This document shows, piece by piece, positions 3,866-18,976 of a DNA stretch of 18,976 nt. The stretch covers positions 1 to 18,976 of the forward strand of contig JBMFOP010000061.1 of NCBI GenBank assembly GCA_049969675.1. Reading direction: 5' to 3'. A program made the translations under genes and the position numbers. Source of the DNA: Myxococcota bacterium (GTDB lineage Bacteria > Myxococcota > SpSt-1050). The first letter of the stretch is position 1. Each line of letters starts with the position of its first letter. A model generated the notes under the pieces. That model was given only the letters and a program-made list of their open reading frames with translations, was not told where the DNA came from and did no database searches.

Positions 3866-5983
3866 TTATTCCTCCTGAAAATAGGTTACAGGTAAACATA
3901 TTGTCCCTATCTTATCTATAAGTCTGCAGACAGTCAACGATTTCGTGCAATCAAAGTGGTCTCTACATCTCTCTGTGCAAAATGAATTCTTCTCATCAAC
4001 ATTGGCACAGAGGCCCGAATCACAGACATAGGGATTATTACTACAACTCTGACCAACATCTGCATCAGCAGGCTTTCTGGCACATACTCTAACAGCCTTT
4101 GCATAATCCCTGCTCAAATAAAATGGAACAATCCTACATATATCAGGATTACTACAATCGGAATCAATTGCACAAAATCTTGTACATTTCCCGATATAAT
4201 TGATTGAGGCATCTGTATCTTTGTCGGGGAGACATACCCCACTCTCACACTCCTCATTTGAAGAACATTCATCTCCATATTTCTTCAGTTCAGTATATAC
4301 CTTCATACACAAAGGCTCAGCCTCTCCGCTCCTCTTATCAAAGGATATACGACAGACCTCTCCCTCAGGACAACCTTCATCTCTAACACATTGATAAAGG
4401 GAGCCCGGATGCGGGATACATAGCTTCTTAATTATATCCATATTAAAACCGACATTCAATGTAAAGAAGGCGCAGATATATCCATCTGGACAATCGGATT
4501 TATCAACACAAAAGGCGGAACATCTGTTGTATTCAAAAAGACATATTCCAGAACTACAGGGTCTATCACAGATCTCCCCGGGGAGTGCACTATCTGTATC
4601 AGACCTATAACATTGAACTCTTCCTTGCCCATCTGAATCAATGAGCGAGCAGAAGAGACCATCCGTGCAATCTCCATCCCTGTTGCAACCATCATCACTT
4701 AACTCCATCAAACAGAGCTGTTCATTCTCATAAAAATCACACACAAAATTTTCTGGACAATCAAGGGTGCTCTTACATATCTCTGAACAATACGGCAAAT
4801 CAGAATTTTTAACACAGATTGAACTTTTACACTCCTCATTTGAATAAGTACAATATTCACCTGTTTCCTTCTTTACATCCTTATAATTCACGCATCCCCT
4901 ATATAAAATATCATTTTCTGAACTTAAAAGCTCCTCACATACAAAACCCTCCGGGCAATCATAGTCCATCAGACATGGCATAGTGCATATATTTCTACAG
5001 CTGTCCTTACAATATTTCAGCCTGCCACACATTCCCCATCTACACTCATAGGAAGTATCACAATAATCTCTTGAAATAGCACCATTATTTAATATCCCGC
5101 AAAAGGTGGCAATAGAACTTTTATCATCTGAAAATGCATATCTGCATTTCAAACCATAATTACAATCTTTGCTGTTATTGCACCTCCTCGGCTCATACAT
5201 ACCCTTCTTAATGCATACATTCTTATCTGGATAGGTGGGGAAGATTCCACAATAAAAGTCATAGGGACAGTCCGAATCAGTTCTGCAGAGTCTGGAACAA
5301 TAAGAATAGGCATATCCATCGGCTTTGAGGCATAGTCCACCTGCACACTCCTTATATGGCTCCTCCCCTTCACAATACATCCCGGTCTCTGAGGGTGTCC
5401 TGGGTATACAGGCGAGTCTCCCCTGATAATCTCTGTCACAGATCTGATTTTTATCACAGTCCATATTTGAATTACACCCTCTACCACATCTCTCTATTGG
5501 GATACATCTTCCATCTACACACCGACGACAGGAACCACAGTCAGAGTCATCCTTACACAGAGTCACAACGCATATTGTGGACAGCTCACAGAGATTATTT
5601 ATACACAGGCCACAGGGTTCACACTCCTTATCATTACTGCAGACAGTGCGCGAATAGATACTCTTTATACAGAGTTTGTCAGAGCCAGCCTTAGAACAGA
5701 AATAGCCCGGAGGACAATCATAATCCTCTTCACACCTCTGTGTACAATACCTCTCACCATAATTATACATACAGAAGCCACCAATACAATCATCTGAGCC
5801 ATTACAACCAGTCCCAACGCTTACAAGACAGTAATCTCCTGATTTCAACGAACCAGCCGGGCAGTCCCCTCTCACAAGTTCTATCCTCTCGGGTCTCTCA
5901 CATGAAAGAGGAATGAATAAAGACAGAATTACAAAACCAGCGATAGGAATTAGTTTAAGATCTTTTGCAGATGAGAATAACAT
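3866..5983 (-). CDS. Cys-rich repeat lipoprotein (disulfide-rich surface protein)
   Basis: Hydrophobic signal ending in lipobox-like FIPLS|C. About 89 Cys by manual count, in recurring Cx5C...C[ST]xxCxxDxDCPxG[FY]xC modules. Confidence 0.85.
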   Translation of the reverse strand: MLFSSAKDLKLIPIAGFVILSLFIPLSCERPERIELVRGDCPAGSLKSGDYCLVSVGTGCNGSDDCIGGFCMYNYGERYCTQRCEEDYDCPPGYFCSKAGSDKLCIKSIYSRTVCSNDKECEPCGLCINNLCELSTICVVTLCKDDSDCGSCRRCVDGRCIPIERCGRGCNSNMDCDKNQICDRDYQGRLACIPRTPSETGMYCEGEEPYKECAGGLCLKADGYAYSYCSRLCRTDSDCPYDFYCGIFPTYPDKNVCIKKGMYEPRRCNNSKDCNYGLKCRYAFSDDKSSIATFCGILNNGAISRDYCDTSYECRWGMCGRLKYCKDSCRNICTMPCLMDYDCPEGFVCEELLSSENDILYRGCVNYKDVKKETGEYCTYSNEECKSSICVKNSDLPYCSEICKSTLDCPENFVCDFYENEQLCLMELSDDGCNRDGDCTDGLFCSLIDSDGQGRVQCYRSDTDSALPGEICDRPCSSGICLFEYNRCSAFCVDKSDCPDGYICAFFTLNVGFNMDIIKKLCIPHPGSLYQCVRDEGCPEGEVCRISFDKRSGEAEPLCMKVYTELKKYGDECSSNEECESGVCLPDKDTDASINYIGKCTRFCAIDSDCSNPDICRIVPFYLSRDYAKAVRVCARKPADADVGQSCSNNPYVCDSGLCANVDEKNSFCTERCRDHFDCTKSLTVCRLIDKIGTICLPVTYFQEE

Positions 5984-15109: not shown

Positions 15110-16675
15110 ATGAGCCTTGATATATTTGAAAAGGAGAAGATCGCAACTGAGAAGAGATACTGGTTGAGGACTACCAGAAGGTGTAACAACCACTGTATCT
15201 TCTGCCACGACTCAGAGATTCAGAATGGTGAGATCATTTCCACAAAGGATTTAAAAGCAGAGATTGATAAAGCCAGAAATGATGGATATACAAGACTTAT
15301 CCTCTCTGGCGGTGAGCCCACAATACACCCCGAAATAATTCAACTAATCAGATATGCAAAATCAATAGGTTTTGAATGGATTCAGATAATCTCAAATGGA
15401 AGGATGTTTGCATACCCCTCTTTCACCTCGGATGCCGCAAGGGCTGGACTAAATGAGGTCACAGTCTCATTTCACTCTCACATTCAGGAGGTCGCAGATA
15501 GACTTACTGATATAAAAGGCTCATATAAGCAGACAATTCTGGGCATTCAAAATCTAAAAAAATACAATCTTGTCATCTCAATAGATATCGTGCTCAATAG
15601 ATTGAATATCAATAAACTCACCGAGACGATTGAATTCTTTTACAAGAATTTTGGAATAGCAGAATTTGACCTTTTACACCTCACCCCATTTGGCAGGGCA
15701 CTTGAAAATTATGAAAGGTTGATTGTCCCGTTTGAAGAGGAATACGAGGCATTAAAGAAGGCAATTCATTTTGCACAGAAGAATAATATTGTACTCTGGA
15801 CAAACCGTGTTCCACCAGAGGTCCTGGAAGGGAATGAGAGTTTTATACAGGACCCACACAAGATACTGGATGAGATAAACGGAAGGAGAGAGATTTTTGA
15901 AGGATATTTAAGAGATGGGGTGATGGTGTGCAGGAAGAGAGAGAGGTGTGGGCATTGCTTTGTGAGGGATTTTTGCGAATTCCTGATTGAGATTAGAAGT
16001 ACTTTTTATAAAAATAGAATTGAGAGATTGGAGATTAATAACAATCTAAATTCAGAACTCCTATCACTGATATTTGACCACCTTACATACAATGCAACTA
16101 TATTGATTCGGCATAATCTCATTGAATCAATCTCAGATGAATTAATTGGGAGCAGCAAACGGGTTATAATTAAAACCGATACAACAAATAATCTTAAAGA
16201 ACTAATTTTTAGATATAATCTTCTGGCAATAATGACAGAAAATTTTGAGCTCACCAAATTTAAGGGCACAAAGGTAATACTTATTCTAAACAGGAAGAAT
16301 TTTCAGAGGCTCGCTTCTCAGAAAAATCTAACATTACTATTTCCAAATACCGAAAGCATCAGAGATGAGTTTGAAAATCTTCCTCAAATTGAAGATGTTA
16401 TGAAAGTAATAGATAGGTGCAATTTACGGGTTGCAAATCTGCCAAAGTGTATTTCAAAGAGTCACTACAAAGAGAATCCATACTTCTTTAAGGCAGAATT
16501 TATTACAGAGAGTGGCTTTGACCTCTTTGAGATAGCAAGAGACTTCATTCTAAAAAGGAATTATCACAGATCCCTCAGATGTAAAGATTGTATTCACTAT
16601 TCACAGTGCCCTGGTATGCATATAAATCACATAAGGAGGTTTGGCTTTGGAATTATGAAGCCAGTCAAATTATGA
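15110..16675 (+). CDS. Radical SAM protein with two SPASM/twitch-like Cys clusters (peptide-maturase-like)
   Basis: CNNHCIFC (CxxxCxxC), LSGGEPT, ISNG, VSFHS, HLTPFGRA. Internal CRKRERCGHCFVRDFC; C-terminal NLPKC...CKDCIHYSQCPG. Confidence 0.9.
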   Translation: MSLDIFEKEKIATEKRYWLRTTRRCNNHCIFCHDSEIQNGEIISTKDLKAEIDKARNDGYTRLILSGGEPTIHPEIIQLIRYAKSIGFEWIQIISNGRMFAYPSFTSDAARAGLNEVTVSFHSHIQEVADRLTDIKGSYKQTILGIQNLKKYNLVISIDIVLNRLNINKLTETIEFFYKNFGIAEFDLLHLTPFGRALENYERLIVPFEEEYEALKKAIHFAQKNNIVLWTNRVPPEVLEGNESFIQDPHKILDEINGRREIFEGYLRDGVMVCRKRERCGHCFVRDFCEFLIEIRSTFYKNRIERLEINNNLNSELLSLIFDHLTYNATILIRHNLIESISDELIGSSKRVIIKTDTTNNLKELIFRYNLLAIMTENFELTKFKGTKVILILNRKNFQRLASQKNLTLLFPNTESIRDEFENLPQIEDVMKVIDRCNLRVANLPKCISKSHYKENPYFFKAEFITESGFDLFEIARDFILKRNYHRSLRCKDCIHYSQCPGMHINHIRRFGFGIMKPVKL

Positions 16676-17799
16676 GAATAGCGCTTATTAATCACCTCTA
16701 TGAGGAGAATGGCGGATATTATTCTAATCTTGTTTTAAGAAGCAAAGAAGAGAACCTGAAAGACATTATTAACACTCTAAGGGAGGGCAGGATTTTTGAC
16801 AAAATTATACTTCAGACAAATAAGAGAGAGAGATATAAAAATTTGAGAGAGATAATTGTAGAAGACACCTCAAATATTGGAAACTTCGGTGAGAGGATTG
16901 AATGGGTATTTAGTAGATTCAAAGGTTGCTCACTATTTTACACCGGAAGTGGTTCATCAGTTTTCTTAAGACCCGATGATATAAAGAGATACCTCTCTCA
17001 CCTCAAAAGAGATTCAATTATTGCAAACAACCTCTATTCTGCGGATTACTTCTTTATCTACACATCAAAGAAGCGATTAAATATCAGGGATATTAAAACC
17101 GACAATACACTCCCCAAAATACTCATAGAGAGAAATGGATTTTATGGGATTGAGATAAGAAGAGATGAGTTTTCACTATTTGATATAGATGGTCCCCTTG
17201 ACCTTCTGGCACTGAAAATTTCTGAAAAAGGCGGAGTTCATCTTAGAAAGTTTCTATCAATTACGAGGCTCTCAAATAAGAATCTCAAGAGGGCACTAAG
17301 AAATTTTACAGAACGAGATGCAGAGGTGCTCTTCTGGGGGAGGATATCAGAGTTTCTAATACAGTTTTTAAGATATAGGACTGCCTGCAGGACAAAATTT
17401 GTGGTAGAGGGAAGGGGTCTTGTCTCACAGGGCGGGAAAGGATTTTACTCTATCTTTTTTGATGCATTCAATAGAGTTAATAAAAGATTTTTATTTGAAA
17501 AACTCCCGTATTATTGTGATGCACTCTTTCTGGATTCAAGGATACTCTTTGCACACTCTCAAATTGTGGTAAATAAAGAAGATAGATATGCACTTGATAT
17601 GTTGGATTATAAAAGGATTTTTGATACAAATATTAAGAATCTATGTAAGATGGCACTCTCTTCAGAGATACCTGTCTTATTTTGCAATCATTCATTTCTA
17701 AACTCTGGAATCCCTCTTCTAATAGATTATGAATGGAGAAGAAAGGGTTACAGGACAAGTAAATTTGGTAATGGGATAATTAAGGAAATTTTTCCATAA
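16672..17799 (+). CDS. Hypothetical protein with CofC/GT-A nucleotidyltransferase-like features, about 375 aa
   Basis: Start moved to ATG 16672 (ATGA overlap with the rSAM stop). Motifs NFGERI, YTGSGS, ANNLYSAD, FDIDGPLDL (CofC/MobA-like DIDxxxDL), DSRILFAH, IPVLFCNHS. Confidence 0.6.
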   Translation: MRIALINHLYEENGGYYSNLVLRSKEENLKDIINTLREGRIFDKIILQTNKRERYKNLREIIVEDTSNIGNFGERIEWVFSRFKGCSLFYTGSGSSVFLRPDDIKRYLSHLKRDSIIANNLYSADYFFIYTSKKRLNIRDIKTDNTLPKILIERNGFYGIEIRRDEFSLFDIDGPLDLLALKISEKGGVHLRKFLSITRLSNKNLKRALRNFTERDAEVLFWGRISEFLIQFLRYRTACRTKFVVEGRGLVSQGGKGFYSIFFDAFNRVNKRFLFEKLPYYCDALFLDSRILFAHSQIVVNKEDRYALDMLDYKRIFDTNIKNLCKMALSSEIPVLFCNHSFLNSGIPLLIDYEWRRKGYRTSKFGNGIIKEIFP

Positions 17800-18829
17800 T
17801 CAATCGTCTCATCTGTTCATATATTCTTCTGGATAAAAGATTATTAGCAAAGTCTGAGAAATGTCCATGATCTCCTCTATCAAGTTTGTCAATCTGCATT
17901 CCGCACAGGACATCAGATATATCAATTACATAAAGCCCAAGTTTCCTTGAATGGCTGATGAATATTTCGGTTACCTCCCTGATAAAATCATCTGGATTAC
18001 AACTGCTCATTGATTTGAGAGTGCCCAGTACAGAGACCACAAATAGTGAATTATCTTCTCCAGCCTCTGCTGCCATCATATCAAGATATTTAAGTTGAGA
18101 TGGATGGACTATATTGTAAGAAGATTTTTCCTTTATTTTCAAGGATTCTATTACAAAAAGGAGATATCTATAAAAATATGAATTCCTTGCAAGAAATGTT
18201 TCTATATTATATGGCAATAAATTTAATAAATCTCCACTATATTTGAGAGAGGGATATGCAATGAAAAATGTCTTGCCTGAACTATCCTGCGATGGATAAT
18301 AGATTGTCTCCTCAAAATCATTTGTATGAAACAGATAAAACAATATATCAGACTGTAACTGCCTGACCTTATAGTGATAAAAAAAATAAATACTCCTCAA
18401 ATTAAATGTAGGGATCCCGGCATTCACCACCTCAAACTTCTTACCAGATATCTTTTTCAATTCAAGGTCATTATTTAGGAAGATTTCAATCTGTTTGGGT
18501 ATTGTGTTCTCAAAAACCATTCCACCAAAGACATGTGAATCACCTATTACAGAGATCCTGAATCTCCCCTCAGGTTTTGGGATCTCTATCTCTTCATTTC
18601 TCATACCTAGTTTATTGAAATAAAAATCACAATGATTCCTGCATTCTTGACTGTTTGGTATAAATTCAAACGGCAGACCCTTTAATTCTGATTCCTTTAT
18701 ATTATTAAAATATAAAGGCGCCCTTACGTTATAAGATGTAATAAATATTCTTGAAAGCAGTTCAATCAGCAAGAGCGAGGAAAATATTGCAGTAAAAAGC
18801 AAAATAAAACTTACAACCTTCCCTCTCAT
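17780..18829 (-). CDS. Membrane-anchored SGNH/GDSL hydrolase (esterase/acyltransferase)
   Basis: N-terminal TM helix; block I VIGDSHVFG, block II VNAGIP, block III HTND, block V DHGH. The 3' end overlaps the convergent gene by 20 bp. Confidence 0.88.
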   Translation of the reverse strand: MRGKVVSFILLFTAIFSSLLLIELLSRIFITSYNVRAPLYFNNIKESELKGLPFEFIPNSQECRNHCDFYFNKLGMRNEEIEIPKPEGRFRISVIGDSHVFGGMVFENTIPKQIEIFLNNDLELKKISGKKFEVVNAGIPTFNLRSIYFFYHYKVRQLQSDILFYLFHTNDFEETIYYPSQDSSGKTFFIAYPSLKYSGDLLNLLPYNIETFLARNSYFYRYLLFVIESLKIKEKSSYNIVHPSQLKYLDMMAAEAGEDNSLFVVSVLGTLKSMSSCNPDDFIREVTEIFISHSRKLGLYVIDISDVLCGMQIDKLDRGDHGHFSDFANNLLSRRIYEQMRRLIMEKFP

Positions 18830-18847
18830 TTTTTAAATAACAAGGAG

Positions 18848-18886
18848 AAAAAATAAAAGGGGTAAAACTATTCTACCCCTCTTATT
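18848..18886 (-). terminator. Rho-independent terminator right after the 16-aa peptide gene
   Basis: Minus-strand RNA AGGGGUAGAA-UAG-UUUUACCCCU (10-bp stem with one G-U pair; 18880-18858) followed by UUUAUUUUUU. Confidence 0.85.
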
Positions 18887-18889
18887 CAA

Positions 18890-18940
18890 CTACTTCTTTG
18901 GTCTTATGCCCTTGGGTCTTGGATTTGGTCTCCAGTTCAT
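18890..18940 (-). CDS. Unannotated 16-aa Arg/Pro/Lys-rich peptide MNWRPNPRPKGIRPKK
   Basis: ATG AAC TGG AGA CCA AAT CCA AGA CCC AAG GGC ATA AGA CCA AAG AAG TAG. Preceded by TAAGGAGGT (18954-18946) with a 5-nt spacer; the terminator stem starts 9 nt after the stop. Confidence 0.75.
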   Translation of the reverse strand: MNWRPNPRPKGIRPKK

Positions 18941-18976
18941 AGCAAACCTCCTTATTGATGTTTATCTCTCAAGCCA

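Follow-up and report, generated by a model that had tools for sequence, protein, structure and literature searches.

A conserved 16-residue peptide gene in Myxococcota encodes a candidate precursor for an undescribed peptide family linked to B12-radical-SAM enzymes

The window analysed here, the entire 18,976-nt contig C61 of a Myxococcota bacterium, carries on its minus strand a genuine micropeptide gene under purifying selection (MNWRPNPRPKGIRPKK, 16 aa; 18890..18940, with ATG at 18940 and TAG at 18892-18890). We propose its product as a precursor in a so far undescribed peptide family associated with B12-radical-SAM enzymes; members of this peptide family share the core W-R-P-x-P-(R/K) and recur, in many uncultured bacteria, beside genes for one family of cobalamin-binding radical SAM enzymes, here called A. 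An orphan B12-radical-SAM family is thereby paired with a candidate substrate of 7-41 residues that gene callers have missed. If confirmed, the pairing would define a further class of RiPPs, made by uncultured bacteria and with an apparently cellular rather than antibiotic role, and would indicate that precursor genes can duplicate into unrelated operons where they are invisible to neighborhood mining.

The gene follows a 9-nt Shine-Dalgarno (SD) site, TAAGGAGGT (18954-18946, minus strand), with a 5-nt spacer to the ATG, and its core occupies residues 3-8 (18917..18934, minus strand) in the profile of 31 distinct peptides. Beyond the stop codon lie an intrinsic-terminator-like hairpin (18887-18851) and a T-rich tail, together spanning 18843..18887 on the same strand. 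This order of SD, spacer, ATG, 16 codons and TAG had been noted in a preliminary description and is borne out on the minus strand, as is the composition of one Trp, three Arg-Pro units, six basic residues and no acidic ones. The reported hairpin and U-tract are likewise present, but “GC-rich” overstated the stem, in which four of 17 pairs are G-C. A GGAGG-type site precedes all 11 peptide-gene copies compared. Folding of a 147-nt segment around the gene gave z = -2.3, a terminator scan of 5 kb returned three sites where 2.7 were expected, and an Rfam search of the gene region yielded weak matches only, far below gathering scores. The layout was also said to be unlikely by chance, which does not hold: 13 of 90 TAAGGAGG-N5-9-ATG sites in the same genome lead into ORFs of fewer than 50 aa, and two of those 13 are the copies of the peptide gene. 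The SD-ORF-hairpin arrangement is not rare in this genome and is weak evidence when taken alone; we accept the gene as real because of its conservation, specifically its synonymous bias.

The identical peptide is encoded a second time in the same genome with different codons (C44:17681-17731, minus strand). The window copy is found in all three same-genus genomes compared (G001-G003), and the second copy also in G002 and G003. Across nine distinct coding sequences, ten columns vary synonymously and one nonsynonymously (R13K in G002), with pS at 0.52 and pN at 0.006. The search anchor, matched by 11 of the 12 sources, fixes parts of codons 1-7 and constrains the nonsynonymous count there; the binomial P of ~1e-6 for the bias is overstated, as the sequences are related and some codons anchor-fixed. 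The four window-type copies are 86-96% identical in coding sequence and 27-57% identical in their 30-nt flanks, and both an SD and a hairpin are retained in every one. The hairpin sequences differ, and folds of the 65 nt after the stop contain hairpins of -14.8 to -20.5 kcal/mol in all four genomes. Frame and SD are thus kept in relatives with the synonymous-biased conservation that had been suggested as a check, and the objection that the region is only a 3' UTR fails on that bias and on flanks that diverge while coding sequence, SD and hairpin persist. DNA similarity located the gene in three of 40 other genomes, all of the same genus, and missed a more distant relative in G004, a member of another family.

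The surroundings of the window copy suggest that it is the last cistron of a minor-pilin/PilY1 operon. Its ATG lies 21 nt past the stop of a 1302-aa PilY1/PilC-like gene, whose last four codons and TAA (18962..18976, minus strand) close the window and which continues on contig C47; the upstream order was joined through 77 identical bases shared by the ends of C61 and C47. Matches of this gene to PF05567 (E 7e-5) and NF040838 (E 3e-8) are both below cut-off. The four genes before it look like FimU, PilV, PilW and PilX, labels that we presume from N-terminal motifs. The order of pilin-like genes, PilY1-like gene and peptide is kept in G001-G003, so that the pilus placement holds for four of four genomes of the genus. 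The hairpin had been regarded as the peptide gene's own terminator; its presence stands, but it would most simply end the whole operon. A 349-aa gene downstream (17780..18829, minus strand), with no Pfam or NCBIfam match, is kept in G002 and is probably outside the peptide system; in G001 and G003 a convergent gene lies 3' of the peptide. We rejected a general link between pili and peptide, as 80 metagenome loci chosen by A held zero pilin motifs and the pilY1 orthologue in G004 has no peptide gene behind it. As far as tested, the link is restricted to the genus, and the simplest account of the window copy would be a duplication at the level of the genus, with the duplicate then retained by selection. 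Its placement may reflect a pilus-related role, or merely a convenient transcript.

Gene B begins at a GTG that shares 1 nt with the second copy and is itself followed by A, and the peptide-B-A arrangement is kept in G002 and G003, which supplies the shared neighbors that the preliminary description had proposed to look for. A TTGACA-17-TAAATT promoter-like site 5' of this copy is a consensus match only (three found versus 1.8 expected). A and B contain Pfam B12-binding and Radical_SAM domains, and A, B and a further enzyme, C, carry CX3CX2C. All three missed every cut-off of the curated models tried, including TIGR03975 (82.5 for A versus 281.85) and ApyD NF050148 (68.4 for A versus 750), and their best matches were BchE/HpnJ-type. 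The nearest solved structures are distant (AprD4, CysS, OxsB, TokK and TsrM; E 6e-15 or weaker). No PqqD/RRE match appeared in 11 scanned segments, of which the three from A, B and C were C-terminal ends only. Family A comprises 515 proteins at E <=1e-60 among 8000 scored, with source names from Omnitrophota, Nitrospirae, Methylomirabilis, Myxococcota and Deltaproteobacteria. The peptide's own genome has 14 related B12-radical-SAM frames, and a single-protein search of genome contigs returned two close relatives only. In G004, at a locus of 64% GC, a 21-aa relative of the peptide stands directly 5' of A and B, whose order is swapped. The apparent absence of A, B and the second copy from G001 is best read as an assembly gap, because they would follow gene C at the end of contig C6, which stops inside that gene. 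G162 (98% complete) encodes A at 51% identity with no peptide adjoining and no convincing one elsewhere.

Linkage to A extends well beyond the genus. We surveyed 80 metagenome loci, the best 80 of 293, for short, ATG-led ORFs with W-[RK]-P-x-P near the start; the loci had been retrieved solely by homology to A, through an alignment built from 52 of the 120 listed A homologues. A W-x-P-x-P pattern predates retrieval of the loci, and its exact form was settled following an initial inspection. Such ORFs occurred in 43 of the 80 loci, two of which, L092 and L126, we set aside as chance; six scrambled motifs matched in 1-3 of 80 loci and shuffled loci gave 0-5 of 80. By position, 39 of 45 motif matches fell in the 3.5-kb stretches upstream of A, which total 202 kb, and six in the remaining 765 kb. 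The peptide accompanies 36 of 66 A clusters at 95% identity and eight of 15 at 60%, counts that drop L076 and L101 and include the looser members L140 and L089. In a quick tree that was left unfinished, peptide-bearing clusters are spread over many deep branches; the loci span 30-73% GC, and an SD precedes 35 of 41 peptide ORFs. A is the enzyme common to all peptide cases seen; the loci were chosen by A, so no tighter partnership is implied. A strict motif match is absent from 37 of the 80 loci. Among the 55 loci that extend 1.5 kb or more upstream, 20 lack a peptide nearby; they include an entire clade (L102, L108, L113-L115 and L138) that retains the methyltransferase described below. A distant peptide copy, as in the window, could explain some of these cases.

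Orientation is mixed, with 23 of 41 peptide ORFs on the same strand as A and 18 opposite; at least six face a convergent gene, from which we take the product to act in trans. Of the 41 loci, 27 contain a gene for a class I SAM methyltransferase, usually between peptide and A, and 18 contain B; three have neither in the available DNA. Peptide, class I methyltransferase and A thus form a module that recurs in unrelated neighborhoods. The ESM Atlas returned generic methyltransferases for this partner. No orthologue exists in the peptide's own genome, where the best match has E 1e-8 whereas members reach 1e-58 or better; a search of G001-G004 and G162, run without a positive control, likewise gave none. 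Among the 40 commonest neighbor families, about 12 of them run through Pfam, no protease or exporter was recognized. A U32-family gene is present in five loci; U32 proteins are known as Fe-S hydroxylases. Other neighbors include lpxC, UbiA, polyprenyl synthase and glycosyltransferase-like membrane protein genes. As a separate observation, the methyltransferases of L079, L080, L083, L093, L096 and L097 begin with an additional winged-helix-like segment that the other members lack, with HTH matches at E 3e-6 to 0.2 and no PqqD match. Clusters of at least eight B12-radical-SAM genes were also seen in L041, L057 (G002:C41), L052, L055 and L056 (G004:C105). Those of G002 and G004 hold membrane or glycosyltransferase-like genes, and that of G002 also holds UbiA prenyltransferase and polyprenyl synthase genes.

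The family now counts 31 distinct peptides of 7-41 aa, the 7-aa member at L134 being minimal. W, R/K, P and P of the core are fixed by the search pattern; among the choices that the search left free, Arg rather than Lys stands at +1 in 31 of 31 and Arg or Lys at +5 in 28 of 31. Between Met and Trp lie 0-4 residues, with Trp as residue 3 in 15 of 31. Several members are built of tandem cores of 7-13 residues, four in L093 and three each in L109, L135 and L140. Relatives consist of 33% Pro and 33% Arg plus Lys, with almost zero acidic residues. P-R-P, a motif of proline-rich antimicrobial peptides, is found in the window peptide and in 16 of 29 distinct relatives, and R-x-P-P in none of the 29. 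The statement that the peptide belongs to no recognized family agrees with our searches of curated families: Pfam and NCBIfam gave no meaningful match for four members of 21-41 aa, PDB held zero chains matching a 21-aa relative at E <=10, and the ESM Atlas returned nothing above 0.78 for a 41-aa member. No publication on a W-R-P peptide family was found in a search that mostly excluded subscription journals, and supplementary mining tables may list members. One looser ORF, at L089 (minus strand, near 570), points away from A and has Y-H-P in place of W-R-P, possibly as a variant core.

Searches beyond the A loci yielded candidates that we set aside. With a two-mismatch pattern in 301 genomes, matches outside the genus were about as frequent as for the reversed control, and the one examined further, in G043, runs antisense inside a flagellar-motor-like gene. 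A motif pattern, which left out Asn and so lacked a positive control, matched 24 of the 301 phylum genomes; the 25 loci inspected held no stand-alone peptide gene, and the matches looked like shadow frames in GC-rich genes. Viral scans gave zero and then three matches, two in long frames and one a 14-aa W-R-P ORF without SD (L168, viral contig, minus strand, 3030) that is probably chance.

From these sequence patterns we consider it somewhat probable that the gene product is a minimal RiPP-type precursor that is modified, probably methylated, by A with help from B or the class I methyltransferase. The W-R-P-x-P-(R/K) core near the N-terminus would be recognized in trans by A, whose most likely reaction is C-methylation of Pro, Arg or Trp; a Trp cross-link may also form, because cobalamin radical SAM enzymes also make rings and thioethers (PMC13331322). 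Further changes would be made by B in this lineage and by the class I SAM methyltransferase in others. The window duplicate, presumably gained in the genus, would add precursor whenever the pilin/PilY1 operon is transcribed, and, since no protease or exporter was seen to recur, the mature peptide may remain intracellular or membrane-associated. Linkage to one B12-radical-SAM family and the multi-core forms make a RiPP precursor the better supported of the two options offered in the preliminary description; counting against it are the A loci and G162 that lack a nearby peptide, the low scores of A, B and C with the RiPP methyltransferase models, the grouping of related enzyme genes with membrane, glycosyltransferase-like and prenyltransferase genes, which points to lipid or glycan substrates, the failure to recognize an RRE, protease or exporter in the segments and neighbor families scanned, and the distance of the window copy from the enzyme genes. 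A more specific version, in which an almost leaderless, A-matured W-R-P micropeptide has an unexported, housekeeping-type function across many uncultured lineages and its second gene in this genus ties supply to a pilus tip-adhesin operon for a role in pili or attachment, is speculative and rather unlikely.

Linkage, action in trans and optional presence would be accounted for equally well if the peptide, itself left unmodified, served as an accessory subunit or regulator bound to A or the methyltransferase while those enzymes modify an envelope lipid or glycan. The lpxC, glycosyltransferase-like, UbiA and polyprenyl synthase neighbors and the BchE/HpnJ-type matches favor such a role, and because B12-radical-SAM genes sit among membrane and prenyltransferase genes in G002 and G004, envelope substrates are suggested for at least some of these enzymes. 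Tandem cores of 7-13 residues and the 7-aa peptide, however, would better fit a cassette substrate, and we give the accessory role a low probability. Lower still is that of a peptide like the proline-rich antimicrobial or small ribosomal ones, unmodified and bound to the ribosome or nucleic acid, whose enzyme linkage would be historical. Its Pro-rich and basic composition, near-invariance in the genus and one copy apart from the enzymes would suit this; yet the ribosome-tunnel reading leaves unexplained why the peptide remains beside A despite inversions and altered neighborhoods, P-R-P is limited to about half of the relatives, PDB, Pfam and NCBIfam lend no support, and the phylum loci inspected contained no stand-alone gene. 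A modified peptide with such a role would still be compatible with the precursor reading.

Control of a downstream gene by a cis-acting leader or arrest peptide is very improbable. The C44 copy is coupled to B, the window terminator lies 18-21 nt before the next gene, the majority of peptide ORFs share the strand of A and a hairpin often stands before the next gene, all as a leader would have it; the ORFs opposite to A and those facing a convergent gene, as in G001 and G003, do not fit. Moreover, RAPP-type arrest motifs sit at the C-terminus (PMC12992588), in contrast to the N-terminal conservation of this family, and R-x-P-P is missing from the relatives. Finally, the frequency of short SD-led ORFs in this genome might recommend a chance ORF in the pilY1-like 3' UTR, a reading refuted by the 10:1 synonymous bias, the second copy and some 30 distinct relatives, and to which we assign a negligible likelihood.

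Compared with known systems, the proposed precursor would work like clavusporin and be laid out as minimally as myxarylin, yet it appears to fall outside both by membership features. Clavusporins (mpc cluster, Streptomyces; PMC10849626) have a short precursor beside a B12-radical-SAM enzyme that beta-methylates Pro in the core, and a physiological rather than antibiotic role, both of which resemble the system proposed here. The clavusporin precursor differs in being a 39-mer with a leader, a Val/Ile/Thr/Pro-rich hydrophobic core and an acidic follower, whereas the peptides here are 7-41 aa, basic and Trp-anchored; MpcB has CX7CX2C and needs DUF5825, in contrast to the CX3CX2C of A, B and C; and the mpc cluster, described there from Actinobacteria only, includes an S9 peptidase and a transporter. 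A DUF5825 search found no match in the peptide's own genome, and control genomes were likewise silent. Biarylitides and myxarylin (PMC12951456, PMC13417212) also have minimal precursors missed by gene callers; myxarylin has a two-residue leader, and its second enzyme is a class I SAM methyltransferase (PMC12951456). These systems differ in having five residues and a P450 cross-link, as opposed to a longer Pro/Arg/Lys peptide with a cobalamin radical SAM enzyme, and no P450 was recognized among recurring neighbors of A loci. Enzyme class and proposed chemistry are shared with other B12-radical-SAM RiPP methyltransferases (TIGR03975 and ApyD NF050148, and the bottromycin and polytheonamide enzymes named in PMC10849626), although A scores far below both model cut-offs. 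Proline-rich antimicrobial peptides and RAPP arrest peptides are similarly Pro/Arg-rich, cationic and short; the C-terminal motif and cis action ascribed to RAPP peptides (PMC12992588) were not seen in the W-R-P family.

Several other regions of this genome merit brief description. At 15110-17799 (plus strand) of the window, an HxsC-like radical SAM gene (TIGR03977, 119.8 bits, below cut-off) overlaps a 403-aa gene of no family, and the pair is syntenic in G002 and G003. A 705-aa cysteine-rich, lipoprotein-like ORF (3866-5983, minus strand) is followed downstream by what we take to be an ExbB/ExbD-like set. Contigs C4, C10, C15, C68, C73, C75, C88 and C123 carry repeated fragments of short ORFs whose N-termini resemble one another, as if left over from the decay of insertion-sequence ends, and an SD-led 23-aa ORF near 11790 of C57 (plus strand) is rich in Lys, Ala and Thr and resembles a histone tail.
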